The notes below the pieces were generated by a model. It did no database searches and was not told the DNA's origin. It worked only from the letters and a program-made list of their open reading frames with translations. From an archaeon (GTDB lineage: Archaea; Nanobdellota; Nanobdellia; SCGC-AAA011-G17; GW2011-AR17), in the NCBI GenBank assembly GCA_018656555.1, contig JABHZQ010000023.1:2875-66874 (forward strand): DNA of 64,000 bases, in the 5' to 3' direction. Shown here in pieces: positions 22,488 to 59,989 of this stretch (positions within the stretch are counted from its first letter, which is position 1; each line of letters starts with the position of its first letter). Position numbers and translations under genes: made by a program.

Positions 22488-22570
22488 TCATCGGAGACAT
22501 TACCTCAAAACTACCTCATAAGTATAGTTTTTGCCTTATACTCACTCACATATTAAAAAAAGAAAAAAAA

Positions 22571-23204: not shown

Positions 23205-23375
23205 ATGCAACGATTTCAATCTTTAAGGTATATGCAAAAAACTAGAACGGTTTGTGTTCGTATTTCCCAAGCTGAAGAAATCATGTTAAAGGCTGAAGCT
23301 AAAAGAATTGGTAAACCTGTTACTTCTTTGATTAGAGATGGTTATTTGGGTAAGGTTGAGAGGATGTTGGTTTAA
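23205..23375 (+). CDS. Ribbon-helix-helix (CopG/MobC-like) DNA-binding mini-protein, 56 aa; not in the ORF track because it is under 60 aa
   Basis: MQRFQSLRYMQKTRTVCVRISQAEEIMLKAEAKRIGKPVTSLIRDGYLGKVERMLV, a beta-strand-helix-helix pattern. An AGGAG SD sequence sits 5 nt upstream. Confidence 0.5.
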   Translation: MQRFQSLRYMQKTRTVCVRISQAEEIMLKAEAKRIGKPVTSLIRDGYLGKVERMLV

Positions 23376-24112: not shown

Positions 24113-24147
24113 ATCCTCTTAGGGAGGAAACAACCCTTATATATCTT

Positions 24148-24645: not shown

Positions 24646-24660
24646 TAAAAAAAAGAAAAA

Positions 24661-32812: not shown

Positions 32813-33238
32813 CTAAGGGTTGCAATACCATAATTTTACCTTCTTTCCAGAGATTGTAGCATCGTCTGGTATTATGTCTCCAATACACTCTTCTGTGTAA
32901 AGAGTATTGTCAATATAAAACATATAAACTCCTTCTTCCCAACCATAAGTATTTGTTATCAAAGCCATCTGTTCTTGCATCAACTCACAAGCATCTTGAC
33001 CACACTCAAAACCACCACTCATACAAGTCTTAATTACATCATCCATTTGAGTACTTTCACATACTGTTTGTAGACGGATAACGTCGAGCATGTTGGATAC
33101 TTCTAAATGCATTTCAGTCTCTTGTATTGAACTTGTACCTGAATCATCAGGCATAAATTTGATATAAAAAATTATTCCCATTATGATTAATAAGATAATA
33201 ACCATAAATCCAAGTATTTCCATTTGACCTTTTTTCAT
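32813..33238 (-). CDS. Pilin-like protein with an archaeal class III (prepilin-type) signal peptide
   Basis: MKKGQ|MEILGFMVIILLIIMGIIFYI, a KGQ motif followed by a hydrophobic helix. Confidence 0.5.
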   Translation of the reverse strand: MKKGQMEILGFMVIILLIIMGIIFYIKFMPDDSGTSSIQETEMHLEVSNMLDVIRLQTVCESTQMDDVIKTCMSGGFECGQDACELMQEQMALITNTYGWEEGVYMFYIDNTLYTEECIGDIIPDDATISGKKVKLWYCNP

Positions 33239-33750
33239 TGCAGTATCTCGATTGTTAGTTTACCCAATTGATATTCTCCTGTTGTAGGTATATACAAAGT
33301 TACAGGAGTTGAAATGGGTATTGAAGTTGTATAATCATCTTGCGGCTCATAAAACATATACTCATTACAATTAGGATAGTTATCTAAAGTACAGTTTGTT
33401 TCCACTATACCTTCAGGCAAAAGTTGCGTGAAATAGACCTTTTGTGAGCAAATAGTGCTAAAATACGACCCATATTCTCTTCCTGGATCAAAAACCATCA
33501 ACTTTGCAGTGTCTATACAATTCTCTTGTTTATTGTTAATACTACACTGTACTTCAGGCATATTAGCAATATAAGATAAAAGAACATAGTTAGACACAAT
33601 ACAAACATCTTCTATTGTTTCTTGTCCTGCTGAATAAGACACCTTAAAATAAAACACAAGCCCCAATACTAATATTATCATAAATACCATAACTACCACA
33701 ATAGTCTCCATCATTCCAACTTGAGCCTTAGAAAATCTCAGGACACTCAC
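33235..33750 (-). CDS. Pilin-like protein with a class III signal peptide (weaker match)
   Basis: MSVLRFSKAQVGMMETIVVVMVFMIILVLGLVF. Confidence 0.4.
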   Translation of the reverse strand: MSVLRFSKAQVGMMETIVVVMVFMIILVLGLVFYFKVSYSAGQETIEDVCIVSNYVLLSYIANMPEVQCSINNKQENCIDTAKLMVFDPGREYGSYFSTICSQKVYFTQLLPEGIVETNCTLDNYPNCNEYMFYEPQDDYTTSIPISTPVTLYIPTTGEYQLGKLTIEILQ

Positions 33751-34729
33751 CTCCCAAGTTCTTATTTGCAGCTTCTATTGTATTTACATAGCTTTGATAG
33801 GTCATAGCTGTATCTGTATTACCAATATAACCCTTATAATTATTCAAACTAGTTTTTACTGAAGTATAATCACAATTAGGTAGCCTAGTAGATATAAATT
33901 TAGACTTTTCATAATACAAATTAGTTATTGAATTTAACTTAGACAAAGCTAATTCCATATTATAATCATATTCATCTTTATTTTCTGAAATAAAAGCACC
34001 AACTAACATCTCCTTAGTCAAATATATAGAAGACCCATCTACAAATTCTATTTCACCATAATTAAATTCTTCTTCATCAGTATAAGTTACTTCAATTATA
34101 TCATAATTTTCAAAATAAGATTCTGGATTAATATTTGATTCTGTTAAAAATATAAATCTAACCTTTTCATAATTTTTTGTCAAGGTTGCAAGAGAGTCAA
34201 GATTAGAACTTAAATCTGATTCATCTATCAATTGATAATCAAAGTTTGAAGGCATTGACGCATATCCTTCAGTTAGTTCTTCTGCAAACTCTTCATTAGT
34301 TGGATTCTTTTGATTGTAAACTAAAACATAATAAGTTCTTTTGTCGTCGAAGTAAAAGAAATTTACAGTTTTATAAGGGAGTTCAAATGTTTTTGTTGCT
34401 ATATATATTTCTCTCCCTTCAATCTTAAGAGGTGAAAATATCACCTTATTCATCTGTTTCCCAATACTTAAACTCTCAGGTGTAATAACTCCTTTACTAA
34501 TATACAATTCTAAATCCCTACTGTAATCTAATGTGTCTTGTGCATTTAATGAAACAGAAAGAGCAGTTAACTCATCACTAATTGCATTAGTTAGTTCTGC
34601 ATCTGATTTACTTCCAGATACAGTCATATACTTATACGCAAAGCCAATAAAAAATATAAGAAACATGGAACCAATTATGATTCCAAAGATATACTTAAAT
34701 GCCTCACCTGTTTGTCCTTTACGTTTCAT
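33728..34729 (-). CDS. Pilin-like protein (333 aa) with a class III signal peptide
   Basis: MKRKGQ|TGEAFKYIFGIIIGSMFLIFFIGF. Confidence 0.5.
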   Translation of the reverse strand: MKRKGQTGEAFKYIFGIIIGSMFLIFFIGFAYKYMTVSGSKSDAELTNAISDELTALSVSLNAQDTLDYSRDLELYISKGVITPESLSIGKQMNKVIFSPLKIEGREIYIATKTFELPYKTVNFFYFDDKRTYYVLVYNQKNPTNEEFAEELTEGYASMPSNFDYQLIDESDLSSNLDSLATLTKNYEKVRFIFLTESNINPESYFENYDIIEVTYTDEEEFNYGEIEFVDGSSIYLTKEMLVGAFISENKDEYDYNMELALSKLNSITNLYYEKSKFISTRLPNCDYTSVKTSLNNYKGYIGNTDTAMTYQSYVNTIEAANKNLGGECPEIF

Positions 34730-35216
34730 AGTAAGTTATAGAAACTGAATCTACCTCATTCCTTAACAATCCCTGTTTTCCATTAGTTATACACTGAGGA
34801 TTACCCTCTACAGGTATTAATTTTTCAACACTAAAGTAATTTGTTTCATACTCTGGTGGATAAAGATAAACATTTCTTGAAGAAACAACCACTGCTTCTA
34901 TATACTCATTCATTTCTGCAGGACAGGGTAACCCATTATCCAAAACACAATTATAATTCTCATTCCCATTGTAAAAACAAACATATTCAACCAATCCTGG
35001 CAGATCCATTGTATATTTTTTCGTTGCACCTTCATCATACTTAGAAAAAGTTTCTACTTCATTCTGCATATCAGTTACTTTATCTGCTAGTTGAGCATAA
35101 TCAGCTTGTGTATTAAGATCTAAAACTATTTTTATACCCCAAAAAAGCACTAATGCTCCTATGATCAATGCAAAGATTAGTACTAATGGTAAACCCATAA
35201 CTTGTCCTTTTTTCAT
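34719..35216 (-). CDS. Pilin-like protein with a class III signal peptide
   Basis: MKKGQ|VMGLPLVLIFALIIGALVLFWGI. Confidence 0.5.
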   Translation of the reverse strand: MKKGQVMGLPLVLIFALIIGALVLFWGIKIVLDLNTQADYAQLADKVTDMQNEVETFSKYDEGATKKYTMDLPGLVEYVCFYNGNENYNCVLDNGLPCPAEMNEYIEAVVVSSRNVYLYPPEYETNYFSVEKLIPVEGNPQCITNGKQGLLRNEVDSVSITYYET

Positions 35217-35219
35217 TTT

Positions 35220-38200
35220 TTAACTCCACAAAGATATATCTAATAAGTAAGATCCTTGATTTCCATAAATATCTTCACATATAATATAATACATAGGGAA
35301 TCCCAAACTTGGAGAATGTGTTGGTGTTTGTGTTCCCATTGGTGTACCATCACCAAATTCAAACTCTTCTGAAGCAAACTCACAAGTCGCATCCTCATTA
35401 AACTCTATTACAAGTTCATAGAATACTTCATCTACATATATAGATGTTATTTGAGGTATTGAATCATCATACTCTACAGTAATCTCACTTGATGTTGCAT
35501 TTTGATTACCTGCCACATCCTGACAAGTCACATAAAGAGTATAATCTCCTGTAAATAAATTAAGTTCTTGGGAATGTGATGTTGAATTTGTATCTAAAAA
35601 CTCAGTCATTGCACTATACTCATTAGTATCAGTACTAAACGCACAAGTTGAAACTCCATTATCAGCTCCAGCACTGGTTTTTACTTCTATTTCTAAGGTT
35701 GTATTATACACCTCTCCTTCTGGAGACATAGAGTCAATAACTAATGTATCCTCTGATGACTTTGTTGAATACTTATAGCTCTCCTCATTTGTATTTCCAG
35801 TACTATCTTGACACCTAAAGTAGAAATAATTAATTTCATCTGAACTTATTCCAGTTAGTGTTCCAGTACAAGGATAGGTTCCATAATATATTGATGATGC
35901 TTGGAATCCACTAGTTGTACAAATCATTTCATTGTCCATTATAGTATAATCAGTATCCTCTGTACTCCACTTACAAGTTGCTGGTTCATCAGTGTAAACA
36001 GATAACATTGTTTCATTCACACCATAAGCAACATATAATCCCTCATCTAGTGAAGTGAAAACTACTGTAGGAGGAGTTAGATCTGGAGTTGTATCAACTT
36101 GGAACCTTACAAAGTAATCTCTTTCATTTGCATTACCATTGTAATCAATACACTTTACATAAATAGTGTAAATTCCTTCTGTTAAAGCAATAACTTCTTC
36201 ATCTGTTACTTCATCTCCTAAAGATAATAGTAAAGCATGATTGTATAAGTATAAATCAGTACCAAAATCATAATTCATCTCTTCATAAGCTATTCCTGGT
36301 TCTGTTGCATATTTACACAATGCTGGTTCATCTGTTTCCAAACCAATTTGAACAGGTGTAAATGCAGGTATTAATTCATTTATTTCTAATCCTGGATTAC
36401 CTTCCTCATATGTTTCCCTAAAAGTATAAGCCTCTGAAAATAATTCTGTATTTGGAGTTACATCTGGACTGTTTACATCATTTGCATATACAGATACACA
36501 AGATTCATTTCCAGATCCTTCATTGATTACTTGGCAAGAAGCACCTAATGCTCTACATCTATATTCTGAACAAGGTTTCTCATCAGTATTACATAATTCA
36601 CAATCATCTCCTCCAGAAGGTGGTTGCCATCTTCCACAAGTTGCTTCATAATTTACAGTAGTTTCATTATCAAAACCATATTCTACAAATAAGTAAACTG
36701 TAAATGCTGTTGTCAAAACATTTGAAACTCTTGTAACAGTTTTTGCTCCTTGAGCTTCTTGCATAGTTGTTCCAAGTTCTGCTTGATAAGGATCATCTGA
36801 ATTAGCCATAGCAGCAGTCTCCTTTGCACTTACCTTTCCAACCGGCCTTCCAATCAAACCAACAATAGGCATTGCTCCCTGTAAAAAACATCCAGCTCCA
36901 GATGCAAAATCTAAATTAGATTGTTTTTGTGCAGATGTACCAATAGCACCAGCCAAAGTATCACACTCACCTTGTTGATCAGAACTTAAATTTGCATAAT
37001 TACCACAATCTTTTTCATAACTTGTTAAATCTGTGGTGGTTGTTGCATCTCCAGTTATAGAATCTATTCCAGTAACTCTTCCACCAAGTGCACCTAAAGC
37101 ACTACCTCCTCCTCCAACCAAACCACCAAGTGATTGTAAAATATTATTTGCATTTGCACTATCCATACCTTGCATTATTTGGGCTTCTTTTGCTTTTGAA
37201 CAGGCAACTGTTTGAGATACCGCCCCAACACTTCCAGAAATTATTGCTCCAACAAAAGCTGGATTTGAATACCAATATCTTGAATTTGCTCCATAGTATT
37301 TAATCTCTCCACCCCCCACATTAATCAAATAATCCCAATCTCCAATATCTTTTGATTCCAACTCATCATAATCAAAGAAAAATACTTCATCAAATGCATT
37401 ACTTGTAAATCCATCATAAGATGCCACACCATTCCAATTATAATAAGCACCACAATCTCCTTGTGCCTTACATAAAATATTTTGCTTTACAAACCAATCC
37501 CTCTCAGTACATCCCATAGGAGTTTCCATAACTAAATTCCAATTATCAGCATTAGTCTTTCCACCAAAAATCTTTTTCCATCCACCAATTCTCCAAGTTG
37601 CTTCACAAGTTCTTGTTGCTTCTGAACATACTTCATCTGTTGAAGCTGTACTTGCATCTCCATCATCTGCCCAGAACTGTTGACCCGGTGGAACTTGAGG
37701 TACACATACCCCTCCAACTGTTGTTTCCACTTCTAGATCTTCAGCCTCTTGTTGAGCACTAGTCAATGGAATATTAGATCCTCTATCCACTCTCTCTACT
37801 TCTCCTTCCAACCAAAAACAATCTCTATAATCTTCATCCTCACAACACTCTCTTACTGCTTCTTCATTAGAAACAGAATTAGCAATAATTCCTGAAGTAT
37901 CACCTACTTCTTCTTCAACATAATTACAATCATAACAATCTTCCCATCTATTATCTCTACAAGCTGCTTCTATATAATCTCCAGAATCAGATAAATGTAA
38001 TGCTTCAAGAGTTCCAAAGATCTCTGCAGATAGAACACCATGAATACAAATATCCTCTCTAAAATCAGTACAAGGTTCAGGAACCTCTTCTCCATTAATA
38101 CACAACTGCCTAAAATGTCTTGAACCAACAGTATCCTGTGCTTCTCCAGTAAAGGAATCATACAAACACCAAGACTCTCCATTTAATTTATCTCCACCAG

Positions 38201-39110
38201 CACCAGGAGAAACCTCATCATCATAAGTATCATAACAATTTAAATCAATACAAGTAAAATCTCCCTTTTCCATAACATGATCTTTATCTGTTCCACAAAC
38301 ACTTCCAGCTGCATAATCACAATTTCCACAATTTTTATCATAAGGTCCTGTAATTGTACAAGACTCTTCTTCATCTTTTATGTAACCACTATTATAACTT
38401 GAAGTTATATCTGAAGAATAGATATTTTCTCTATTCCCACAAGAATCATGCCAATAAACCTTTCCTTCGTAACAACCAGTATGTTGTTGTTTTGCACAGT
38501 CTGCTGAAAGTAAATCATTTGAACATAACATTCCAGCATTAAAACCTTCTTCTGTAAAGTTTGATCCAACAGATGGTTCATTAGATGCAGTAGGACAATT
38601 GTCTCTTGTTGTAAAAGTATAATCTTCTCCATTAGCACAACATCCCCATTCAGAATTTTTAACAGAATTAAGACAAGCATATTCAGTTGCATAGGATTCA
38701 TCAAAATCCATATTAACCTCTTCATACTGTGATGCTATCTCTTTACATTTAACTTCAGTAACAAAGAAAGCTTGATCTGCAATCACACAACAACCTTGAG
38801 TACATTGATCTATTTCACAATTCATTGAATCCACCCAAGCACTACCTTCTTCTACTTCACACCTTGATTTTGCAGTATTTTTAAAACAAGAACCAGAATC
38901 AGAAGAATAACAACAACCAATTTGACAATAAGAAGTTTGTTCACAAGTTGCATATGCTGATTGATAATTTAGATTACATTCTGATTCATCTGCGTACCTA
39001 CAATACTCGCCATCATTAGTAACCTCACAACATGCATTTGAAGCTGAGACAAAATTAATTAGAAGAATTATTACTATACTAAAAATTAATATTATATTAC
39101 CTCTTTTCAA
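35220..39110 (-). CDS. Giant cysteine-rich secreted surface protein, paralog D (1296 aa)
   Basis: N-terminus MKRG|NIILIFSIVIILLI is signal or class-III-like. Shares modules with the other three giants: CCE…C…YC.GCC repeats; a GESWCLYDS…RH(F/Y)R…C core; DCGAYYNWNG; CELCN. C-terminal repeated ~100-aa modules carry a C.D..GN.N motif. Confidence 0.7.
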   Translation of the reverse strand: MKRGNIILIFSIVIILLINFVSASNACCEVTNDGEYCRYADESECNLNYQSAYATCEQTSYCQIGCCYSSDSGSCFKNTAKSRCEVEEGSAWVDSMNCEIDQCTQGCCVIADQAFFVTEVKCKEIASQYEEVNMDFDESYATEYACLNSVKNSEWGCCANGEDYTFTTRDNCPTASNEPSVGSNFTEEGFNAGMLCSNDLLSADCAKQQHTGCYEGKVYWHDSCGNRENIYSSDITSSYNSGYIKDEEESCTITGPYDKNCGNCDYAAGSVCGTDKDHVMEKGDFTCIDLNCYDTYDDEVSPGAGGDKLNGESWCLYDSFTGEAQDTVGSRHFRQLCINGEEVPEPCTDFREDICIHGVLSAEIFGTLEALHLSDSGDYIEAACRDNRWEDCYDCNYVEEEVGDTSGIIANSVSNEEAVRECCEDEDYRDCFWLEGEVERVDRGSNIPLTSAQQEAEDLEVETTVGGVCVPQVPPGQQFWADDGDASTASTDEVCSEATRTCEATWRIGGWKKIFGGKTNADNWNLVMETPMGCTERDWFVKQNILCKAQGDCGAYYNWNGVASYDGFTSNAFDEVFFFDYDELESKDIGDWDYLINVGGGEIKYYGANSRYWYSNPAFVGAIISGSVGAVSQTVACSKAKEAQIMQGMDSANANNILQSLGGLVGGGGSALGALGGRVTGIDSITGDATTTTDLTSYEKDCGNYANLSSDQQGECDTLAGAIGTSAQKQSNLDFASGAGCFLQGAMPIVGLIGRPVGKVSAKETAAMANSDDPYQAELGTTMQEAQGAKTVTRVSNVLTTAFTVYLFVEYGFDNETTVNYEATCGRWQPPSGGDDCELCNTDEKPCSEYRCRALGASCQVINEGSGNESCVSVYANDVNSPDVTPNTELFSEAYTFRETYEEGNPGLEINELIPAFTPVQIGLETDEPALCKYATEPGIAYEEMNYDFGTDLYLYNHALLLSLGDEVTDEEVIALTEGIYTIYVKCIDYNGNANERDYFVRFQVDTTPDLTPPTVVFTSLDEGLYVAYGVNETMLSVYTDEPATCKWSTEDTDYTIMDNEMICTTSGFQASSIYYGTYPCTGTLTGISSDEINYFYFRCQDSTGNTNEESYKYSTKSSEDTLVIDSMSPEGEVYNTTLEIEVKTSAGADNGVSTCAFSTDTNEYSAMTEFLDTNSTSHSQELNLFTGDYTLYVTCQDVAGNQNATSSEITVEYDDSIPQITSIYVDEVFYELVIEFNEDATCEFASEEFEFGDGTPMGTQTPTHSPSLGFPMYYIICEDIYGNQGSYLLDISLWS

Positions 39111-39158: not shown

Positions 39159-39926
39159 CTATACTAATTCCTCACCTTCTATCGCAAATTGGAAAATAAA
39201 ATCTCCTTCTCTCAATTTAAGTTGATAGATTTTATCGGGGTAAGGCCTGTACTTGTAAATTGTATATCTACTTAATTTTTGCAACATATAGACCAATTGA
39301 TCAAACTCTCCTAATGATGCTTCTTCATTTACAACATCCATTGCAACATCATACAATTCACCTAAAGGATAATCAAAAGAAACTGAAAACTCATCTTCTT
39401 TCAATGTTGATTCATCTTTTGAAATTTCAACAGGATAATCTAAAGTCAAATCTACATTGTATGGAAGTATCTCAACCTCCAAAGTCCATTCATTTGCAAT
39501 TGATGAAATATCGTCGCTGTAATCATAAACATTAATGCAAGTTTCTAAAGCAGAAGTTATTGTTTCTTCAAGCTCTTCTTCCATATGCGCAACAGTCAAC
39601 ATTCTATTTGAACATGTTGCAGAATTTATTTGATTATAACATAAATAACTTACAGCTGAATCATTATATAATCTATAAGAAGTTTCAGGAGTTGCAAGGT
39701 AACCACCCTGTAATGCAATTTGTACAATATAATCCTCCCCCACATCCTCTAAACAATCAGTTATATGGTTATCAACATCATTCATTTGATCTTGAGCAGA
39801 ACCCCCTCCAAGAAGCGGAGGAATAATCTTTGTTTGTGTTCCCACAATGTACAAAGCTATAATTACTACAACAACAATACCTATTATTATAAAAACAGTT
39901 GCCTGACCTCTTTTATCCATTATCAT
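39159..39926 (-). CDS. Pilin-like protein (255 aa) with a class III signal peptide
   Basis: MIMDKRGQ|ATVFIIIGIVVVVIIALYIVG. Confidence 0.5.
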   Translation of the reverse strand: MIMDKRGQATVFIIIGIVVVVIIALYIVGTQTKIIPPLLGGGSAQDQMNDVDNHITDCLEDVGEDYIVQIALQGGYLATPETSYRLYNDSAVSYLCYNQINSATCSNRMLTVAHMEEELEETITSALETCINVYDYSDDISSIANEWTLEVEILPYNVDLTLDYPVEISKDESTLKEDEFSVSFDYPLGELYDVAMDVVNEEASLGEFDQLVYMLQKLSRYTIYKYRPYPDKIYQLKLREGDFIFQFAIEGEELV

Positions 39927-39958: not shown

Positions 39959-42900
39959 TTATATTTCTATTGTAAATGAACCTTGGTTACCAAATTCATC
40001 TTCACATATTATATAATAAGTTTGTATATCTGTAAGTGCAATTGTTCCTGATGTAGCAGTACCTTCACCAAAAGCAAAAGGCTCATATAAATATTCACAA
40101 GTTGCAATTTCATCAGTTTCAAATACTAATGAATTAAATGCTTCATCAACATAAACATTTCCAAGTCCTGGCGCATTTGTATCAATATCAACTGTAAATG
40201 AAATAGTTGTTGAATTTTGATTACCTGCAACATCTTGACATAAAATATCATAAGAGTAAGCATTTGTACTTAAATCTTCTAATAATTGTTCGTGATAAGA
40301 TGCATTAGTTGTAAAAAATTCTATTGCATCATAACTACATACTGCTTTTCCATCTTCAGCACCAACTGAAGTCTCAACTTGTAATGCAACATCATTATAA
40401 TACACTGTTCCATTAGGTGAGGTTCTATCTATATTCAATGGTTCTGTTCCTTTTAATACATAAGCATAATTCTGTGAATTAATATTTCCAGCCATATCTT
40501 TACAAGCAAAATAAAAGTAATTCTCACCTAACTCCGTTACATTAAGAACAGCAGCCTTATAATTTTCATAATAAGCTGACTGTGTTGCAATAGATCCAGT
40601 CCCATAGATAAAGTAATTTTCCATTAAATCAAATTCTTGATCTGAGTAAGACCATCTACACTCTTGAGTTGGTTCATTTAGATAGATTGTTACAACAGGT
40701 GTGCTTACATCAGCAGCAATATAACTTCCAGATGCAATATCTGTTGATTCAATCATTGGAGCCTGTACATCCTCTCCAGCAGTAGTTGTTACCTTCATTA
40801 CAAATGCATTTATGTTCCAATTTCCTACTGGATCCTGACACCTTATGTAATAATTAAATTCTTCATCAGGAGTTAAGACTCTTGTTTGATTATGATTTTT
40901 TGAATAGTATGAATCGGGGAACATCTCTGTCATCTCATCAAAAGATTCTATTGGTTCAGTATCAATCCTACATTGAGACAATTCATCAGTTATTATCCCA
41001 TAATTAAATTGAGTATAAGGTTGAACTCCAGTTACAGATACTCCATTTGTTCCATCTAAATTATAAGTATAATCATATTTTAGAAATATATCTTCATCTA
41101 TTTCTATAATTGGATGATTAACATCATTAATGTGTGCATTAAAACACTTCTCTCTTTCAGTTCCAGCATTTTCACTTATATAATCACAAGCAGCACCTAA
41201 GGATTTACATTTATACTCGGTACACTCATATCCAGCAAGTACATCTCCAGAACCATCATCTAAAGCAAGACCTCCTTCTGAAACGGGCAAGTCACATAAT
41301 TCACAAAAATCTCCCCCACTAGGTGGAATCCAAGATTCACAATTTGCAGATACTGTAATTGTTTCTGATTTTCCGCCACCAGTTAAAAATTGAACTATTA
41401 AAACCACAACTGCAGCAACTGCAGCAACTACTGCACCAACAGGTCCAGATACTGCACCAACAAGTGCTAAAATTGCAAAAATTGCACCAAATGCACCAAC
41501 CACCACAGTAAGTATAGTTGCAGGGGTTTTAAAATCAGACAACCATTCAGTAGCCATTCCTATTTCTGCTTGGTTTTCTAAAGCTTCTGAAATTCCAAGT
41601 AACCCACCATGAACACCATAAGCATTTCTTAAATTCAAACCAGGAGTTTCATCAATATAATATGAAGCCCTATCCAAATCAGTTCCTGCACCATGATCTT
41701 CACCATAACCAGAATACCATTTAGCCATATCCATCCCTAAATATAATACACAACTTGTCTCATCAATTTCATTACAAGCACCCTTACAAAGACCACCACT
41801 TCCACTAAACAAACCATAATCTTCATCCCCATATTCATCATGACAATCCCAATCATAACCTACTTTATTTTTATGATTTAAAGCACCAAAAAGTTCAGCT
41901 AAAGTAACAGTCATATAAAAACCATCATTAGATTCTTGTTCTAAAATATTAAAATTAGCACCACAATCTCCAGCCATTGAACACCACTTAGAAGCATTAA
42001 CCATCCACATATCAGACAAACATTCACAATTTTCAACACATTTCCAATTTTCTGCTGTCTGACTCTGTTGAGTCAAAGTAACATCACAAGTTAAAGTTTT
42101 TTCACTACAAGTTGTTGAAGTTTCTGATTCCCCCCAAAACTGATTACCTTTTGGAACAGTAGAAACATTAGTGCTAATTGCACTATCATAAATATTATTA
42201 TCCTTACAAGCAGCTGCAGTCACAATACTCTCATCCCCACCATATGGAACTTGAATACAAATCTCCTCTCTATAATCCCTACAAGGTTCTACTATCTCCT
42301 CTCCAAAATAACAATAAGATCTATAATGTTGAGAACCAGGCCTATCTAAATAAGCACCAGCAGGAGACTCATATAAACACCAAGACTCACCATGATATCT
42401 TTGTCCCCCCATTTTCCTTTCATCATGTTTGTTAACATCTTTCTCAGTACCTAAATTATCTATATTCCCCGGATCACCCAAATTATAATAATAACTTCCA
42501 TCCCAAGTGTAATAACCATCATCTCTTTTCTCATCACAATTTACTGTTTTACAATAAGCATTATCTTCATCATCATAACCACACCAAGTCCCTTTTGTAT
42601 AATCACATTCTCCATTTATCCCTGCAGTATTTCCATCAGAATCTCTATCAGAAGAATCAACCACAGTCTCTTGATTACCACAAGAATCAAACCAATAAAC
42701 ATCTTCATCAACACACTTCATCTCAAAATGTTCAATACAACCACACAAGTTCAAATCACTACACAATCTTTCTTTATAGAAACCAGTCCCTCCCTCCAAA
42801 TCAATCTCTGGAGTTTCACACATATCTTTTGTATCATAAACACAAGACTCATCTGATACACAACAACCCTTATCTGAAGCAGTACAAAGATCAACACAAG

Positions 42901-43378
42901 AATATTCATCTTCTACTTCAGCAAACTCTGCATCCACTTCAGGATAATCTGCATCTATGTATTCACAATGGGCAGAAGTAGTATAAGAACAAATAGAATT
43001 TGCAATATTACAACAATTCTTCTGACATTGAGCCAAATTACATTCAGCATCTTCATACCAAGCATAACCTTCAGTATTTTCACAAACAGTTTTAGGAACA
43101 TTTTTAGAACACTTACCTATTTCAGAAATACAACAACCACCTTTACAATAAGAAGTCTGCTCACAAGTAACTGCAGAAGAAGAATAAGAAGCATCACATT
43201 GATCTTGTGTAGTATAAATACAAGATAAATCAGAAGTTGTTTTTTCACAACAATAATTTGTTTCAGTAATAACCTCTTCCTCAGCTGTAACTAACTCAAT
43301 ATTATAAACTGTAAAAATAGAAGCTATAATTATAAGAGTCATAAATAATGCCTTTGTTTTGAGAAAATCACCTCTCAT
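39959..43378 (-). CDS. Giant cysteine-rich secreted surface protein, paralog C (1139 aa) with an internal Gly/Ala/Val-rich hydrophobic hairpin
   Basis: N-terminus identical to paralog B (MRGDFLKTKALFMTLIIIASIFTVYNIELVTAEEE). Contains GESWCLYESPAGAYLDRPGSQHYRSYCYFGEE, ENCECLSDMWMVNASKWCSMAGDCGANFNILE, CELCDLP and ECTEYKCKSLGAAC motifs, plus an internal ~46-aa hydrophobic stretch. Confidence 0.7.
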   Translation of the reverse strand: MRGDFLKTKALFMTLIIIASIFTVYNIELVTAEEEVITETNYCCEKTTSDLSCIYTTQDQCDASYSSSAVTCEQTSYCKGGCCISEIGKCSKNVPKTVCENTEGYAWYEDAECNLAQCQKNCCNIANSICSYTTSAHCEYIDADYPEVDAEFAEVEDEYSCVDLCTASDKGCCVSDESCVYDTKDMCETPEIDLEGGTGFYKERLCSDLNLCGCIEHFEMKCVDEDVYWFDSCGNQETVVDSSDRDSDGNTAGINGECDYTKGTWCGYDDEDNAYCKTVNCDEKRDDGYYTWDGSYYYNLGDPGNIDNLGTEKDVNKHDERKMGGQRYHGESWCLYESPAGAYLDRPGSQHYRSYCYFGEEIVEPCRDYREEICIQVPYGGDESIVTAAACKDNNIYDSAISTNVSTVPKGNQFWGESETSTTCSEKTLTCDVTLTQQSQTAENWKCVENCECLSDMWMVNASKWCSMAGDCGANFNILEQESNDGFYMTVTLAELFGALNHKNKVGYDWDCHDEYGDEDYGLFSGSGGLCKGACNEIDETSCVLYLGMDMAKWYSGYGEDHGAGTDLDRASYYIDETPGLNLRNAYGVHGGLLGISEALENQAEIGMATEWLSDFKTPATILTVVVGAFGAIFAILALVGAVSGPVGAVVAAVAAVVVLIVQFLTGGGKSETITVSANCESWIPPSGGDFCELCDLPVSEGGLALDDGSGDVLAGYECTEYKCKSLGAACDYISENAGTEREKCFNAHINDVNHPIIEIDEDIFLKYDYTYNLDGTNGVSVTGVQPYTQFNYGIITDELSQCRIDTEPIESFDEMTEMFPDSYYSKNHNQTRVLTPDEEFNYYIRCQDPVGNWNINAFVMKVTTTAGEDVQAPMIESTDIASGSYIAADVSTPVVTIYLNEPTQECRWSYSDQEFDLMENYFIYGTGSIATQSAYYENYKAAVLNVTELGENYFYFACKDMAGNINSQNYAYVLKGTEPLNIDRTSPNGTVYYNDVALQVETSVGAEDGKAVCSYDAIEFFTTNASYHEQLLEDLSTNAYSYDILCQDVAGNQNSTTISFTVDIDTNAPGLGNVYVDEAFNSLVFETDEIATCEYLYEPFAFGEGTATSGTIALTDIQTYYIICEDEFGNQGSFTIEI

Positions 43379-43395
43379 TATAATATCAAATAATT

Positions 43396-43408
43396 TAATT
43401 ATTTAAAA
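43396..43408 (-). promoter_or_regulatory. Archaeal TATA-like box (TTTAAATA), about 20-30 bp upstream of the paralog C start. The same sequence recurs upstream of paralog B at ~46917-46929.
   Basis: The minus-strand reading of 43379-43410 is atttttaaataattaaattatttgatattata followed by ATG. The same 32 bp precede the gene at 46900. Confidence 0.35.
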
Positions 43409-46400
43409 ATCTTCTCCTTGCTCTTCTTGCTCTACTTCAATAGTATAAGAACCTTGATTCCCAAACACATCCTCACAAATTATATAATAAACTGATTCAG
43501 TTGCTGCAAAATAATAAGTATTTTCATCTAGTGTGCTTGTAGAAAATCCTGAACCATATTCAAATTCAAGTACATCATACTCACAGTAAGAAGTTTCATC
43601 TAATGAAAAATAAAGATTTACTCCTGATTGATATACTTCTGTTAATTCTGGTGCACTCATATCAATATCAACAATAAATGAAATAGTTGTTGAGTTTTGA
43701 TTACCTGCAACATCTTGACATAAAATATTATAATCATACTGACCTGCAGAAAGATCTTCTAATAATTGTTCGTGATAAGATGCATTACTTGCAAAAAATT
43801 CAATTCCATCATAATAACATACAGACTTTCCAGCCTCAGCACCAACAGAAGTCTCAACTTGTAATGCAACATCATTATAGTATATTGTTCCTTCTGGTGA
43901 AGTTCTATCAATATTCAAAGGCTCTGTTCCTTTTAACACAAAAGGATAAGTTTGTGTATTTGTATTATTATTATAATCCATACAAGAGAAGTAATATTGA
44001 TTATCTCCAATATTTGTAACATTCAATGCAGCCAAACAAGTATTAGCTGAATATACACTTTGAGAATAAACATTCCCAGAGCATAATGTATAATAATTCA
44101 TTAATTCATAATCTTGATCATAAAAAGACCATTTACACTGTGCAGGTTCATTAATATAAACATTTACAAGAGCATAATCTGTATTTGCAGCAATATAAGT
44201 TCCAGACGCAACATCAGTTGTTTCAATTACAGGAGTTTGTACATCCTCTCCAGGTTCAGTTTGTATTTTAAATTGATAAGGTGCTACAGTTGGATTGCCT
44301 GCTGCATCCTGACATTGGATATAATAAGTAAACTCTTCATCAGGTGTTAAGATTCTTGTTTGATTATGAGTTCTATCATAATAAGAGAATGGGAAAAATT
44401 CTGTCATCTCTTCATAAATAGGTAAAGGTTCTGTTGAAATCTTACATTGAGCTAATTCATTAGTCTCAATACCAAAATGAAATTGAGTATAAGGTGCTAT
44501 TCCAGTAACTGAAACCCCATTATTACCTTCTTGAGTATAGGAATAGCCATGTTCAATAAATAACTCCTCATTCAAAGTCATTTCTGGTGCATCAACTTCA
44601 TCTATAACATTATTAAAACATTTTTCTCTATCTGTTCCTAAATTTTCTGAAATAAACCCACATCCAACTCCTAAAGATTTACATTTATACTCAGTACATT
44701 CAAATCCAGGCAAAACCTTTCCAGAACCATCATCTATTGCTAACCCTCCTTGTGAAATAGGCAAATCACATAATTCACATAAATTTCCACCAGGCAAAGG
44801 CACCCAAGGTTCACAATTAGAAGAAACAATTACTGTTTGAGTATCACCTCCAGTAGAAAACAAATAGATTAATGCTGCTATTGATATTACTACTATAGCT
44901 ACAATCCATCCAACCACTGGAACAGAACTACTTGCTCCAGCAACAACTCCCAAAGCAGCAACAACTGCAACTGCAGCTTCAATTGCAGCTGTTATAACTA
45001 CAGTCACAATAATTCCTACAACTGCTCCCACCCCTAGAGCTACAAGCGCTGCTGTTAATCCATCTGATTGATAATCAGACAACCAATCTGCAGCTACTCC
45101 AGTTTCTAATTGATCAGCCATGGCTTTAGAAATACCAAGCAACCCACCATGAACACCATAAGCATTTTTTAAAGTATAAGAAGGATTATCATATTCAAAA
45201 TAACCTAACCTTTCACCCATTAAAACTTCTTCATTTGGTGCATCATAGACATTGTCATCTACACCAGTATACCAACTAGCCCTATACATCGAATCATAAA
45301 ATACACACCGATCATTATCAATTGGATCTCCCCCCTCTGCACAAACATTTTCAGATCCTTCTGTTGGGCACATATCATCAACCCCATAATCTTCTTCATG
45401 CCACCTATAATGACAATCCCAATTATAAGCAATCATAGTTTTATCTTGACCAGTCTTAAGATAATCTTGAGCTCTAGTCATATAAAAACCATCATTAGAA
45501 TACTGTTCTAAAATATTAAAATTAGCACCACAATCCCCTCCACTAGAACACCACTTTGAAGCATTAACCATCCAAACATCTGCTAAACAATCACAATTTT
45601 CAACACATCTCCATTGATTTGCTGCCCAATTTTTTTTACTAAAAGTTACTTGACACTCTAAACTTTTAGCAGTACAAGTAGTTAAAGCAGAATCCCCTGC
45701 CCAAAATTGATTTCCCTTTGGTACAGTAGAAATATTAGTATTCAATGGACTATCATAAATGTTATTATCTACACAAGCAGCCCCAGTTGCTTGTCCTGCC
45801 TCCCCTTGAAGATTTGTTGGATCATAAGGAGATTGAATACAAATCTCCTCTCTATAATCCCTACAAGTATCTATATATTCTTCACCAAAATAACAATAAG
45901 ATCTATAATGTTGAGAACCAGGCCTATCAAAATAAGCACCAGCAGGAGACTCATATAAACACCAAGACTCACCATGATATCTTTGCCCCCCCAACCTTCC
46001 ATCATGCTTATTTATTTTTTTCTCTCCTAAATTATCTAAATCTCCAGGAGCATTAATATTATAATGATAAATTCCATCAAAAGTATAAGTTCCATCTTCT
46101 CTTTTGTTTAAACAATCTGTAGTTTCACAAACTGCATTACCTCCACTATCATGACCACACCAAGTTCCAGCCTGGTAATCACAATCTTCAGCAACAGTCT
46201 CTTGATTACCACAAGTATCAAACCAATAAACATCATCCATCACACATTCTTTTCTATCCTTTGATTCACAATTACAAATATCAATCTCACTACAAAGAGT
46301 TTCCTTATAGAAACCATAACCAGTATCTATATCAATATCTGGTTCATCACACATCTCTCTTGTATCATATATACAAGATTCATCAGTTACACAACATCCT

Positions 46401-46900
46401 TGATCAGATGCAGTACACTGACTAGTACATGCATATTCATAATCCACTACAACAAACTCAGGATCTATTTCTGGATAATCATCACCAATATAATCACAAT
46501 TAGCTTCTGTTGTATAAGAACAAATAGAATTTGCAATATTACAACAATTCTTTCCACATTCAGGAATATCACACTCTGCATTATCATGCCAAGTATATCC
46601 TTCTGTACTTTCACAAACATATTTTGGTACATTCTTAGAACATTTTCCAGAATCAGAGATACAACAACCACCTTTACAATAAGTAGTTAGTTCACAAGAA
46701 GTTTGCGAAGAAAGATGAGCAGTATCACACTGGTCTTGAGTAGTATACAAACAATTTAACCCAGATAAAGTTTCCTCACAACAATACATAGGTTGTTCTT
46801 CTTCAGCTGTAACCAACTCAATATTATAAACTGTAAAAATAGAAGCTATAATTATAAGAGTCATAAATAATGCTTTTGTTTTGAGAAAATCACCTCTCAT
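43403..46900 (-). CDS. Giant cysteine-rich secreted surface protein, paralog B (1165 aa) with an internal hydrophobic multi-helix segment
   Basis: Same motif set as paralog C. Internal ~68-aa hydrophobic segment (LTAALVALGVGAVVGIIVTVVITAAIEAAVAVVAALGVVAGASSSVPVVGWIVAIVVISIAALIYLF). Confidence 0.7.
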   Translation of the reverse strand: MRGDFLKTKALFMTLIIIASIFTVYNIELVTAEEEQPMYCCEETLSGLNCLYTTQDQCDTAHLSSQTSCELTTYCKGGCCISDSGKCSKNVPKYVCESTEGYTWHDNAECDIPECGKNCCNIANSICSYTTEANCDYIGDDYPEIDPEFVVVDYEYACTSQCTASDQGCCVTDESCIYDTREMCDEPDIDIDTGYGFYKETLCSEIDICNCESKDRKECVMDDVYWFDTCGNQETVAEDCDYQAGTWCGHDSGGNAVCETTDCLNKREDGTYTFDGIYHYNINAPGDLDNLGEKKINKHDGRLGGQRYHGESWCLYESPAGAYFDRPGSQHYRSYCYFGEEYIDTCRDYREEICIQSPYDPTNLQGEAGQATGAACVDNNIYDSPLNTNISTVPKGNQFWAGDSALTTCTAKSLECQVTFSKKNWAANQWRCVENCDCLADVWMVNASKWCSSGGDCGANFNILEQYSNDGFYMTRAQDYLKTGQDKTMIAYNWDCHYRWHEEDYGVDDMCPTEGSENVCAEGGDPIDNDRCVFYDSMYRASWYTGVDDNVYDAPNEEVLMGERLGYFEYDNPSYTLKNAYGVHGGLLGISKAMADQLETGVAADWLSDYQSDGLTAALVALGVGAVVGIIVTVVITAAIEAAVAVVAALGVVAGASSSVPVVGWIVAIVVISIAALIYLFSTGGDTQTVIVSSNCEPWVPLPGGNLCELCDLPISQGGLAIDDGSGKVLPGFECTEYKCKSLGVGCGFISENLGTDREKCFNNVIDEVDAPEMTLNEELFIEHGYSYTQEGNNGVSVTGIAPYTQFHFGIETNELAQCKISTEPLPIYEEMTEFFPFSYYDRTHNQTRILTPDEEFTYYIQCQDAAGNPTVAPYQFKIQTEPGEDVQTPVIETTDVASGTYIAANTDYALVNVYINEPAQCKWSFYDQDYELMNYYTLCSGNVYSQSVYSANTCLAALNVTNIGDNQYYFSCMDYNNNTNTQTYPFVLKGTEPLNIDRTSPEGTIYYNDVALQVETSVGAEAGKSVCYYDGIEFFASNASYHEQLLEDLSAGQYDYNILCQDVAGNQNSTTISFIVDIDMSAPELTEVYQSGVNLYFSLDETSYCEYDVLEFEYGSGFSTSTLDENTYYFAATESVYYIICEDVFGNQGSYTIEVEQEEQGEDF

Positions 46901-46938
46901 TATAATATCAAATAATTTAATTATTTAAAAAACTAACT

Positions 46939-49900
46939 CTATAGAATATAATCTAAACTTACTATCAAAGGAGAATTTTGGTTACCAAATTCATCTTCAC
47001 ATATAACATAATACTCACTAATTCCTGGAGATACTGAAAAAGTATGATCTGTTGTTTCTGATCCAGTTGTTTCAAAACCAGAACCAAAAGTAAAAGATGA
47101 AACCTCATATTCACAAGTTGTTTCCTCATTTGTGATTATATAAACCATATTACTCAAATAAAATAAACTATCTACTTCTGGAGGATATTCATCAACATCC
47201 ATTGTAAAAGAAATTTGTGTTTCATTTCTATTTCCTGCAACATCTTCACAATAAATATCATAAACATAATCTCCTTCAGTCAATGTTTGTGATTGTACCC
47301 AAAGAGTATCTGAATCTTGTGATTCTGACATTTGATCATAAGTATATTGATTTGATTGTTTATAGTAACACACAGACTTTCCAGCCTCAGCACCTGCTTG
47401 AGTTCTTACTTGTAAATCTATCTCTTTGTAAGACACTATTCCTTCTGGTGATGTTTGTGTAATCAACAAAGGATCTGATTTTGTTACAGTCCATGGTGAA
47501 GATGAAGACATTACATTACCATATTGATCTTGACATAGGAAATAAAAATTATTAGGGCCATCAGTTATTGAAATTTCATCTCTACAATAATAATCTCCCT
47601 GAATAATATTTGCTGATGGAGAAATACAAGTATCCATATCATTTTCCATTAAATCAAAATTATCACTCTCTAAACTACTATACTTACAAGTTGCAGGAAC
47701 ATCAGTATAAGTCTGTAAGGTTATTGTTTCTGCAGTTGAAGGAGCATATTGCTCACTTGCAGGATCAAAATGGATATATGTTCCAGGGTAAGTAGTTGGA
47801 TCCTGTTCTGAAGCTTTCAACCCTATCTCAAAAATTCCATCATCAGTTTTTCCACAAATATCCTCACACCACACATAAAAACTTTTTTCTTCTCCATTAG
47901 AAAAAACATAACTAATATTATGCTTAAACTCATAAGCATCAACAGCCCAATCTGGAACCTCATAAACTCCAGGATTCATAAATAAGTTATATCTCTCTTC
48001 TGGATCAGTATAAGCTGCTGCCAATTGTCCAAGAGTAGAAACTCCCTCATGTTGATCTAAAATTTCTTGTACTCTCCAATCCTCAACAAATTTACACCTA
48101 GAGACAATGTTTGTTTCAACTCCAAAAGAAACCTTATAACCTGGAGGTATATTAGTTGCATCATAACCAGGATTATTAGTTGTTCTTTTCTGAATTTCAA
48201 TTGTTAATGGTGAAGTTGCAGTTGAATCAATTAAAGCATCATCATATTGAGAAATCTGTACAGACTCATTCAAGATACATTCCTCAGAAACACAAGAAGG
48301 ATGATTAATAGATCCTCTATTCCCTTCAATAAACTTACAATAAGATCCTAAACTTGTACATTTTGAAGCAGTACATGCTGCACCATCTATCCTCTTTCCA
48401 TCCTTACTAAACCACAATCCCCCTTCTTCAGAAGGCAAGTCACACAAATGGCAATTATCTCCATTATCTTGAGGTTCCCAAGCTTCACACCAATGTACAG
48501 ATCTTGCAGCCTTTTTATTATCACCTTCATGAATATTATCTTCCCACTCATACTCATAAAAAGTAAGTGGATTTGAATACTGACTAGCATAATCAAAACC
48601 AAAAGAAGTTGCTCTTAAAGATCTTGTATTCATAACCCAAGGTTTGATACTCTTCAGCTGATTATATAGTAATTCCTCTTTTGAAACTTTATAGGCATCT
48701 TCAGTACAGACATAACTAGTTTCTATTGCATCAGTATAATAATCCAGATAGTCGTCATCATAATCTGAACTTGACGAATAATCATAAATATAATCATACA
48801 TACAACCATCTATAGCACCCACTTCTTGTTTTGCTGAATGAACTTCACCTCCAAGATATGATTTTCCATCCTGCTCATAAGGCCTTTGTATATCATTTGA
48901 AGTTACAAGACCATAAGCTGCCATATTCTCTTTAGCAGAACTCCCTTCAACATAATTCAATCCCAAATTCTTAGATAATCTATCTACTCCACCAGTAGTA
49001 TAACAATTATATGCACTATACATATACAATCTACTCAAAGGTAAAAAAGAAGGAAACATAAAATCAGATAAAAAATTATCATTCACAGTATTTATTTCAA
49101 GATCCCCCTCATTCTTCAAAATAGGAACATAATATCTTCTAATATTAGCTGCTGAAGCTTTCATACAAGCTGAAGCACCAGGAATTCTACTAGAATGATA
49201 TAAAGAATAAAAAGAAGTTCCTTGAAGATATGATTCTGCTTGAGAACAATGATCATCTTCTAAGTCAAAACATTCACCCAAACCCAGACTAGCATCACTA
49301 TTCTCTCCTGCAATTTCTTCTTGGTTATAAGTTATATCAAATGAATCTGGCTGTCCTTCCTCTCCCAATATATTCAAATTAATCCCACAATCTCCTCTTG
49401 AACTACAATAATCCATTGAAGTTGCTATAAACTCAGATCTTAAACCAATTGCATTAGTAATTAACTCATAACCTTCTTCATCACTCCCCCCTCCTTGATC
49501 CCAAAAACCATAATCAATTGTAAAGGTAGCAGCATGACAATAATCATCAGCAGTGGTTGTCCAATCCTCTCTATACGTTCCCAAAGGGACTGTAGAAACT
49601 CCATACAAATATGTCCAATCTTCAGTAGATTTAATCGGCTGATTTATCTCACCATAAAACTCACCAAACCTATTATCATAGTTTATAGACCATTCAGACC
49701 AACTATCTTTTGCATCATTATAATCTGGTGTTGTAGAACAACTTCCAGAAGTAGAACACCATTTTCCAGAATGGTAAGGATAAGTATAATATTCTTCAAA
49801 ATTATTAGAAATACATTTGGCATCAGGATTCCCATTTTCATCAAAACTCATTGCACAATATTCTTCTCTTAAATCTCCACAATTTTCCCAAACCTCTTCT

Positions 49901-50992: not shown

Positions 50993-51577
50993 ATGAAAAA
51001 GTGGGTGCATAAGGTAGAGGTTATTGTAGATTGGATAATTCCCTTTGCAGTTCTAATCCTATTAGGAGTTATTATTGTTGAACTATTCTTCCATGATTTT
51101 GCAGAAACTTATCATTTAGCCATTACAATAATTGATGCAACAGTAATTGGAATATTTGTTATTGATCTAATTTTCAAATGGATCAGAATTAGACATATTA
51201 AACCATTCATAAAAGAATGTTGGTTAGATATTATTGCAGTATTTCCATTTTTCTTAGTTTTTAGAGTAGTTGAAAGATTTTTAATCTTACTAGAATTATC
51301 TGGAGATATTAAACAATTCCAAATGCTATTTCATGAAGGTTTAGAATTAAGAAAAAGTGGATCTAGTATCTTAAAGGAAGGTGGAAAGATTGTCCAAGAA
51401 GCTGAAAAAGCTGGAAAGTTAAGTAGAGTACAACAGATAGTAAGATATATTAAACCCATTCAAAGAAGTCCAAGATTACTAAAGGCACTACCATTTTTTG
51501 AAAAACCCTCAGGAAAACATCACATTCACAAATCAATCTTAAATAAAAAGAAATGGTGGGGGTTCTGGAAGAAATGA
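50993..51577 (+). CDS. Hypothetical membrane protein (ion-transport-like TM region)
   Basis: Three or four TM helices. No pore signature seen. Confidence 0.35.
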   Translation: MKKWVHKVEVIVDWIIPFAVLILLGVIIVELFFHDFAETYHLAITIIDATVIGIFVIDLIFKWIRIRHIKPFIKECWLDIIAVFPFFLVFRVVERFLILLELSGDIKQFQMLFHEGLELRKSGSSILKEGGKIVQEAEKAGKLSRVQQIVRYIKPIQRSPRLLKALPFFEKPSGKHHIHKSILNKKKWWGFWKK

Positions 51578-59957: not shown

Positions 59958-59989
59958 ATTTCTAGGATTTTTTCCTTGTTTTTTAAAGA

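Follow-up and report, generated by a model that had tools for sequence, protein, structure and literature searches.

We examined four giant paralogous proteins, A to D, encoded in a 64,000-nucleotide stretch of archaeal DNA (the window), with particular attention to the long hydrophobic segment that lies in the middle of two of them, B and C. Our results indicate that this segment is probably a constitutive transmembrane (TM) helical hairpin, which would anchor the giant surface protein in the producer's own membrane and leave both of its ends outside the cell. The four genes are as follows.

46939-50919, minus strand: paralog A, 1326 amino acids (aa), a non-TM giant in which the region equivalent to the segment is acidic and aromatic.
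43403-46900, minus strand: paralog B, 1165 aa, the second copy of the TM-type giant, ~60% identical to C.
39959-43378, minus strand: paralog C, an open reading frame (ORF) of 1139 aa, TM-type giant, with a mean predicted local distance difference test score (pLDDT) of 83 in its AlphaFold2 model.
35220-39110, minus strand: paralog D, 1296 aa, a non-TM-type giant and the third gene of a conserved operon.

All four proteins contain 62 to 66 Cys, start with a hydrophobic leader that closes with a V-x-A type motif and end in a hydrophilic C terminus. The parts of C follow one another in the order signal peptide, Cys-rich N-terminal half, TM hairpin, Cys-knot, and four immunoglobulin (Ig)-like domains. 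Scans of the four giants against Pfam and NCBIfam returned only subthreshold or marginal Ig-like matches (Big_13, Y_Y_Y, and DUF4625).

A first-pass annotation of this DNA, made from the sequence alone, had reported ~46 consecutive hydrophobic residues about 600 aa into C and a longer run at the same position in B, and we confirmed both. The minus-strand translation of 41395-41545 is WLSDFKTPATILTVVVGAFGAIFAILALVGAVSGPVGAVVAAVAAVVVLI, corresponding to aa 612-661 of C. The hydrophobic run covers approximately aa 618-665, and its longest stretch free of D, E, K, R, N, Q, and H comprises 45 residues from aa 618. The best 40-aa window of C had a mean Kyte-Doolittle value of 2.55, compared to 0.87 ± 0.21 when this protein was shuffled, and 0 of 5,000 shuffles scored as high. 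In B, the run extends from L615 to F681 (67 residues, with E641 as the sole interruption) and reached a best 40-aa mean of 2.45, again with 0 of 5,000 shuffles as high. TM calls were made with our own scripts, which compute Kyte-Doolittle means and a Hessa sum, i.e., the scale of Hessa et al. 2005 summed over 19 residues, a crude measure that ignores position dependence. Two nonoverlapping 19-aa windows had a negative Hessa sum in C (622-640, -2.9; 647-665, -0.9) and in B (618-636, -2.0; 663-681, -2.8); each protein contains two insertion-grade segments of at least ~19 residues, separated in C by the turn SGP. The DNA of the two genes is alignable throughout except for 41390-41527 in C and 44864-45067 in B; this gap brackets the hydrophobic segment and agrees with where the annotation had placed it. 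The predicted elements of the segment are listed below.

41450-41521, minus strand: predicted TM helix 1 of C, A620-V643 (ATILTVVVGAFGAIFAILALVGAV), running from outside to inside; Hessa sum of -2.9 at 622-640 and Kyte-Doolittle mean of 2.8.
41441-41449, minus strand: tight turn of C, S644-G645-P646, read from the sequence and predicted to lie on the cytoplasmic side; in the closest ortholog, 3 aa are inserted at this very spot.
41384-41440, minus strand: predicted TM helix 2 of C, V647-L665, running from inside to outside; Hessa sum of -0.9 at 647-665 and an AlphaFold2 helix at 648-665.
44858-45058, minus strand: hydrophobic region of B, L615-F681, with a predicted TM1 at ~L615-I640, a hydrophobic loop at E641-P661, and a predicted TM2 at V662-F681 (PVVGWIVA motif).

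Helix 2 of C is followed by TGGGKSE and then by a β-strand that leads up to an invariant Cys, Cys680. The hydrophobic region of B is 98% identical to that of a metagenomic ortholog (P0001).

We then considered how the segment behaves in a predicted structure. In an AlphaFold2 model of C built with an alignment of 65 sequences, residues ~40-520 and 668-1139 were confident (pLDDT of ~85 to 95 for the two halves), and residues 608-667, between them, fell below 50 and were packed in neither half. Because it stays unpacked between two confident halves, the segment is not a buried core strand or helix, in line with the membrane-grade character assumed in the annotation. A Foldseek search of the PDB with the full model returned, among the matches listed, only tandem arrays of Ig-like or similar β-sandwich domains; these include titin, RTX adhesin repeats, GhpA, and cell-adhesion molecules, and they match the four Ig-like domains at the C terminus. 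With the N-terminal half alone, Foldseek gave no match at an E value of ≤0.001 in the PDB or in BFVD. A profile search of all PDB sequences likewise yielded nothing, its best matches (AopB, E = 0.45; KIAA0319-like Ig, E = 0.33) being at chance level.

The annotation had also stated that the segment is missing from A and D. Neither protein contains a TM-grade window: no internal window reached a Kyte-Doolittle mean of ≥1.6, both proteins scored below their own shuffle means, and the best Hessa sums were +8.5 for A and +5.1 for D. The statement does not hold entirely for D, which has a degenerate counterpart at the equivalent position.

36639-37277, minus strand: aa 612-825 of D, which correspond in position to the hydrophobic region; they are rich in G and A and include four stretches of weak hydrophobicity (best Hessa sums of +5.1 to +5.8), none of them TM-grade.

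Conservation among D-type relatives extends to two of these stretches, GAGCFLQGAMPIVGL and VSNVLTTAFTVYLFVEYGFDNETT, of which VSNVLTTAFTVYLFVEYGFDNETT lies at the place of the last TM helix. Across loci, this second giant ranges from no hydrophobic segment to a weak and, occasionally, a TM-grade one. Thus, the possibility raised in the annotation that A and D might carry the segment in diverged form proved correct for D, in a form that is not TM-grade, and incorrect for A. That D keeps a degenerate form of the region argues that the paralogs differ through the divergence of one ancestral region rather than through the insertion of a module.

To what extent the segment is shared was apparent from the relatives of these proteins. 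A search with C found 245 relatives; all source names that were given read "hypothetical protein" and referred to an archaeal metagenome-assembled genome (MAG), assigned to Woesearchaeota or Nanoarchaeota or left unclassified. Among the best 120 of these 245, most of the proteins of ~1,000 to 1,250 aa have 1 to 4 internal hydrophobic segments just upstream of a conserved C..W.P..GG..C..C motif, and a second class among the same 120 (~1,250 to 1,380 aa) mostly has no internal hydrophobic segment. A profile of the N-terminal halves of A to D collected 1,546 clusters (50% identity) at an E value of ≤1e-3. In a census of 203 full-length members of this profile family, an internal window was TM-grade in 121 (median length, 1,134 aa), weak in 42, and absent in 40 (median length, 1,279 aa), and its position was invariably at 0.36 to 0.69 of the protein length. 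The homologous segments that the annotation had suggested looking for in related genomes were therefore found, as ~60% of the 203 proteins are TM-grade at the same mid-protein site, and the presence or absence of the segment separates two paralog classes, as proposed. Its description as a modular insertion confined to two of four paralogs was not upheld, the segment being an old, position-fixed hallmark of one lineage. A recent insertion was rejected, since the location of the segment is shared throughout the family. When one genome per GTDB species was scanned, 502 stretches encoding relatives were obtained; their named sources were Woesearchaeota, Pacearchaeota, or Nanoarchaeia MAGs, bar two labeled "bacterium." Throughout Woesearchaeota and Pacearchaeota, the TM hairpin is the hallmark of the giant gene that opens a conserved operon.

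No TM-grade window was present in the last 45 aa of any of the 203 full-length proteins (0/203). Consequently, the mid-protein segment is the only possible anchor besides the signal peptide, and with TM-grade helices at a fixed position, the idea of a mid-protein membrane anchor, one of several offered in the annotation, is the one that we favor. The hydrophilic C termini of A to D likewise show neither a PGF-CTERM/archaeosortase signal nor a C-terminal TM anchor. In this respect, the giants differ from the Sulfolobales SlaB-type anchors or stalks and from C-terminally anchored S-layer glycoproteins, which they resemble as large, Ig-rich, extracellular, and probably glycosylated proteins that would provide membrane attachment and are encoded beside an S-layer gene, here also with an AglB gene and a glycosylation island nearby. 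Those proteins rely on one C-terminal TM helix or on a lipid (PGF-CTERM), whereas the anchor of the TM-type giants would be a central hairpin of two helices flanked on either side by a large ectodomain. No relationship to archaeal S-layer anchors was found in sequence or in fold.

The geometry and conservation of the segment were examined in an alignment of 65 TM-type homologs. The distance from a YGVxGG motif to the invariant Cys680 is highly variable (102 to 210 aa). Positions -33 to -14 from Cys680 are ~85 to 100% hydrophobic or small and form a fixed 20-residue helix, often with P-V-V-G-W-I-V-A; this last helix is followed by G-G-[E/D/K]-T and by a β-strand, T-x-T-V-T, that leads into a Cys domain.

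41144-41341, minus strand: membrane-proximal Cys domain of C, C680-C745 (C..W.P..GG..C..C ... C.EYKCKSLG..C), directly after helix 2, with seven Cys that are invariant in the 65 homologs.

The hydrophobic core measures 33 to 160 aa (median, 77); its upstream part varies, and its last helix is fixed. It is rich in A (19%), G (14%), V (13%), I (11%), and L (10%) and contains few charges (K plus R, 1.2%; D plus E, 2.5%). An i,i+4 spacing is specifically overrepresented for Gly and for small residues (z of 2.9 and 3.8 versus shuffles, values somewhat inflated by sequence kinship), which is the signature of helical small-xxx-small packing, as expected of packed TM helices. These data also bear on whether the segment could be an element buried in a hydrophobic core or no more than a low-complexity linker away from the membrane. 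The hypervariable length, the tandem repeats in the DNA, and the G/A-rich, non-TM equivalent in D would agree with such an element. We consider it highly improbable, since AlphaFold2 packs the segment into neither domain, with a pLDDT below 50, and the conserved 20-residue helix is 85 to 100% hydrophobic, is held in a fixed register, and has a negative insertion free energy.

Conservation was unevenly distributed along the TM-type giants. Compared to its closest ortholog, from a Woesearchaeota MAG (locus L005), C is 85% identical in the aligned N-terminal half, 94% in the C-terminal half, and 62% in the segment, where substitutions replace one hydrophobic residue with another and a 3-aa insertion or deletion lies in the turn. 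The corresponding identities between the C and B proteins are 60%, 61%, and 36%. It is typical of lipid-facing anchors that hydrophobicity, and not the exact sequence, is under selection. Short tandem repeats with periods of 6 to 21 bp occur within the segment DNA, at 41407-41486 in C and at 44962-44991 in B, and slippage at such repeats is a plausible source of the length variation. B and C are a local duplication of a single TM-type gene. Their 5' ends are nearly the same over a short distance.

43275-43412, minus strand: 5' end of C, leader and signal-peptide codons, 97% identical to B 46797-46934 over 138 nucleotides.

This shared 5' end comprises ~34 nucleotides upstream of the gene and the signal-peptide codons (35 identical aa), the remainder of the genes being 71 to 83% identical; the pattern suggests gene conversion or recombination that may have homogenized the leader and signal peptide. 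Paralog A is an additional non-TM copy that lies upstream, and an A-like gene of 1,324 aa is also found upstream in locus L001.

Several lines of indirect evidence suggest that the two halves of the giants lie on the same side of the membrane. In A and D, a single signal peptide precedes the two halves and there is no TM segment, so that both halves are probably extracytoplasmic modules. A conserved sequon is present in the C-terminal half.

40883-40891, minus strand: sequon N830-Q-T in the first Ig-like domain of C; N-x-S/T occurs at that column in 88% of the 65 homologs.

AglB/STT3 is encoded in the window, in a glycosylation island near the giants. B and C have 7 sequons each, and the overall sequon density was uninformative. 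The halves are also found as separate genes: in four Pacearchaeota-like loci, the D-type giant is split at the segment region into an N-terminal-half gene and a C-terminal-half gene.

Split D-type giant in L057: 8829-10376 and 12972-15368.
Split D-type giant in L062: 10175-14142.
Split D-type giant in L065: 13984-18576.
Split D-type giant in L073: 11215-16963.

In these loci, the N-terminal-half gene has its own signal peptide, and the C-terminal-half gene starts with its own hydrophobic N terminus, so that the C-terminal half is probably exportable on its own. In three of these four genes, the hydrophobic N terminus comes after KRG, a class III/pilin-like pattern. G/A-rich hydrophobic stretches come next in the C-terminal-half genes, and a Cys domain follows them in L065, where the inspected stretch suffices. 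Small ORFs lie between the split halves in three of the four loci. Finally, the Cys count of the C-terminal half (680-1139 in C numbering) is odd in all 65 homologs (17 in 61 of them), and 35 Cys are conserved in the N-terminal half in the same alignment. The unpaired Cys of the C-terminal half could possibly form a disulfide with the N-terminal half or with another subunit or belong to a metal site.

If both halves lie outside, as the A and D proteins, the split genes, the conserved sequon, and the Cys parity together suggest, the number of membrane crossings should be even. The view expressed in the annotation that both flanks are extracellular and that the segment forms a hairpin is accordingly judged the most likely one, chiefly on the export of A and D without a TM segment, the conserved sequon, and the split genes. 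An odd number of TM helices, with a cytoplasmic C-terminal half, was considered and found unlikely, as this half is exported in A, in D, and in the split genes and contains Ig-like domains with the conserved sequon.

From these results, we infer the following topology and insertion pathway. The N-terminal signal peptide would start Sec export of the Cys-rich N-terminal half (~580 aa), helix 1 would act as a stop-transfer sequence, and helix 2 would act as an internal signal-anchor that restarts export, so that the C-terminal half, with its Cys-knot and four Ig-like domains, would also reach the outside. The helices of C would be joined by a tight turn and those of B by a loop that is longer and uncharged. 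The membrane-proximal Cys domain would sit ~13 residues above the bilayer, with the Ig-like domains and the Cys-rich N-terminal half projecting outward. Since helices with a negative insertion free energy in a Sec substrate should function as stop-transfer and re-initiation signals, the hairpin would reside in the membrane of the producer and not in that of a host; this is our chief mechanistic ground for favoring an anchor.

Some observations weigh against this reading. There is no positive-inside signal, as the loop is nearly uncharged and the stretch after the last helix is equally basic and acidic. At a Hessa cutoff of +1.0, 36 of the 65 homologs have two TM windows and 28 have one; helix 1 thus appears marginal in many relatives, and the even helix count is a deduction to that extent. 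The TM calls come from our own scripts, and the coarseness of the Hessa sum applies to them as well. A disulfide between the halves would be compatible with the Cys counts. That the TM-type giant may serve as an anchor within a complex of D, A, or the S-layer protein is proposed from synteny.

Helix 2 might instead be an internal signal peptide, cleaved after x-G-G and before E/D/K-T in the manner of a polyprotein; this would free the C-terminal module of Cys-knot and Ig-like domains, and the hairpin would keep the N-terminal half anchored. Gly occupies positions -12 and -11 from Cys680 in 60 to 65% of the homologs, with S, G, or T at -13, which fits the -3/-1 rule, and the gene fission at the same region in L057, L062, L065, and L073 implies that the halves can function as separate exported polypeptides. 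However, the core of helix 2 is ~20 residues long, and hydrophobic cores of about this length are usually uncleaved anchors and not cleaved signals. In addition, the halves of A and D stay covalently joined and have no such site, and the odd Cys counts are equally well explained by covalently linked halves. Overall, we regard cleavage as unlikely. The succession of signal peptide, ectodomain, stop-transfer helix, cytoplasmic turn, re-initiating helix, and second ectodomain recalls bunyavirus Gn-Gc, flavivirus E-NS1, and alphavirus p62-6K-E1, but these viral precursors are cut by signal peptidase, yield class II fusogens, and have a further C-terminal anchor, whereas the giants have no fusogen fold and no downstream anchor, and their cleavage is hypothetical.

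The annotation had compared the segment to membrane-interacting parts of fusogens and pore formers and proposed that it might be inserted into a host cell. Such a fusion-loop or translocator-like element would be in keeping with the mostly host-attached life of DPANN archaea and with a Gly/Ala-rich hydrophobic makeup like that of viral fusion peptides and of the translocator hairpins of type III secretion systems (T3SS), and the AopB match in the profile search of the PDB (E = 0.45) fell on the segment itself. That match, however, is at chance level and is confined to a compositionally biased stretch; it is the sole link to T3SS translocators, and no secretion-system genes were found in the 10-kb flanks of related loci. 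Neither a fusogen nor a pore former was among the whole-model PDB matches listed, all of which were tandem Ig-like or β-sandwich arrays, and the N-terminal half has no match at an E value of ≤0.001 to a solved structure or a predicted viral one. The model of C is β-rich, without long helices after the segment, and thus lacks the heptad-repeat coiled coil of class I fusion proteins along with their C-terminal TM helix. The three-domain β fold with domain II tip loops and a C-terminal TM helix that defines class II fusogens and fusexins (HAP2, Fsx1, and flavivirus E) was not found either, and fusogens need a C-terminal anchor in order to draw two membranes together. Fusion peptides are among the most conserved parts of fusogens, the opposite of the pattern seen here, where no part of the protein is less conserved than the segment.

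The route to the surface also differs. Viral fusion peptides and the IpaB, YopB, and AopB hairpins, which are likewise Gly/Ala-rich hydrophobic hairpins within large extracellular proteins, are kept off the producer's membrane by moderate hydrophobicity or by chaperones and non-Sec secretion, whereas the segment of the giants is TM-grade and stands behind a Sec-type signal peptide; such helices should be caught by the membrane of the producer. No relatives were found on viral contigs. With no fold match, a C-terminal Ig-like array, no second anchor, and the fastest-evolving sequence of the protein in the segment, insertion into a host membrane is very unlikely, and the tempting reading of these proteins as archaeal fusogens is removed as unsupported.

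The giants are encoded in an operon with small pilin-like proteins and an S-layer-like protein.

39159-39926, minus strand: 255-aa pilin-like protein (MIMDKRGQATVFIIIGIVVVV...), always located between the two giants.
32813-35216, minus strand: four genes for small pilin-like proteins of 165, 333, 171, and 141 aa, in each of which a [KR][GA]Q motif precedes a hydrophobic N-terminal stretch.
30190-32505, minus strand: S-layer-like protein of 771 aa, last gene of the operon, with a Pfam S_layer_C match (E = 2.6e-11); syntenic in L001, L003, and many other loci.

The S-layer-like protein ends in an acidic poly(EEEA) tail of ~35 residues and has neither a TM nor a PGF-CTERM anchor. All five small proteins have a short basic start, KRGQ, KKGQ, RKGQ, or SKAQ, and ~20 hydrophobic residues, the pattern of a predicted archaeal class III signal peptide as in type IV pilin-like proteins. 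This motif was present in 113 of 318 ORFs of the operon zones versus 24 of 1,051 elsewhere. The small proteins had no significant family match in Pfam or NCBIfam. Residues 17-46 of the 171-aa protein (33235-33750) weakly match the NCBIfam model of the Sulfolobus bindosome protein BasB (E = 0.0025, far below the cutoff), which fits a class III signal or a pilin-like helix and constitutes no evidence of membership.

A recurrent module emerged from 78 loci: the TM giant, a pilin-like protein of ~255 aa, a non-TM or weak giant of ~1,200 to 1,400 aa, proteins of ~165, ~325, ~175, and ~145 aa, and an S-layer protein of ~760 aa, an order that is repeated in dozens of them and extends to distant relatives. 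In many loci, the operon follows apparent housekeeping genes, which Pfam matches confirmed for L002 and L003 (RNA polymerase subunit L, TFS, and PCNA) and which matching ORF sizes suggest elsewhere; it would accordingly be a core rather than a mobile operon. A scan of IMG/VR viral contigs detected no relatives, and a viral or proviral origin was rejected on this ground. The TM-type giant is the only large product of the operon that is integral to the membrane, A, D, and the S-layer protein being unanchored; therefore, it is probably the membrane-attached subunit of an envelope assembly that includes these three. The combination of small pilin-like proteins and very large extracellular proteins in one operon is reminiscent of the minor-pilin operons of type IV pili with a large adhesin (fimU-pilVWXY1E) and of the archaeal bindosome with its pilin-like proteins BasABC. 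In contrast to these, the operon described here has no gene for an assembly ATPase or platform protein, and its giants are unrelated to PilY1, one of them being integral to the membrane through its central hairpin.

Given this operon, the hairpins might also oligomerize through small-xxx-small (glycine-zipper) contacts into a channel or portal in the producer's membrane, underneath the structure that the operon builds. The G/A/S-rich composition (A, 19%; G, 14%), the specific enrichment at i,i+4, the near-total lack of charge over up to 160 residues, and the presence of five pilin-like proteins in the operon are in favor of this proposal, and envelope-embedded portals or host-contact organelles, whose component proteins were unidentified, have been seen by cryo-electron tomography (cryo-ET) of other DPANN archaea (PMC11420986). 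Small-xxx-small contacts are nonetheless common in ordinary pairs of TM helices and would serve the packing within one hairpin equally well, and the poor sequence conservation of the region is unusual for a channel lining. We thus view the oligomeric portal as a doubtful alternative to the simple anchor, and hold in equally low expectation the broader idea that the operon builds an envelope-spanning attachment or conduit structure with the Gly-rich hairpins of the TM giant as its basal membrane portal. Were it true, the TM giant would be a molecular candidate for the DPANN host-contact organelles seen by cryo-ET (PMC11420986).

Anchoring by a TM hairpin is in itself an ordinary mechanism; what is unusual is that two large ectodomains are carried on one central hairpin and never on a terminal anchor. 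The family is large and unannotated, with its 1,546 clusters at 50% identity, no Pfam family beyond weak Ig-like matches, and an N-terminal half that has no PDB or BFVD match. It belongs to an eight-gene envelope operon that is conserved across the lineage and in which one type of large subunit is membrane-integral via the central hairpin. We found no paper describing the family or the operon, no cultured representative of Woesearchaeota or Pacearchaeota, and nothing in the literature on their envelope or host contact. These archaea are abundant, and the operon offers a concrete starting point for understanding how they build and anchor their cell surface.

The window is a region of archaeal envelope genes and holds, besides the AglB/STT3 gene and the S_layer_C protein, many GT2 and GT4 glycosyltransferases, PMT_2 proteins, and radical S-adenosylmethionine (SAM)/SPASM enzymes. 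Radical-SAM genes are unusually dense, and several of them have a SPASM domain.

1218-2300: radical-SAM gene.
4341-5444: radical-SAM gene.
7903-9084: radical-SAM gene.
14356-15420: radical-SAM gene.
57321-58322: radical-SAM gene.
59990-61132: radical-SAM gene.

These genes lie within 250-15420 and 57321-63562, interleaved with GT2 and GT4 genes, methyltransferases, a DegT aminotransferase, and AglB/STT3, a mixture that suggests an elaborate glycan or modified-sugar pathway. The region between the glycosylation island and the envelope operon (17569-25917) contains an AAA_14/DUF4143 ATPase (17569-19047), a TrmB-type regulator (23372-24112), and a phage-integrase-family ORF (24661-25917), and it may be the remnant of an integrated element. 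Adjoining A, a 194-aa ORF (50993-51577) has a partial, voltage-sensor-like Ion_trans match in Pfam (E = 3.3e-4, below the gathering score).

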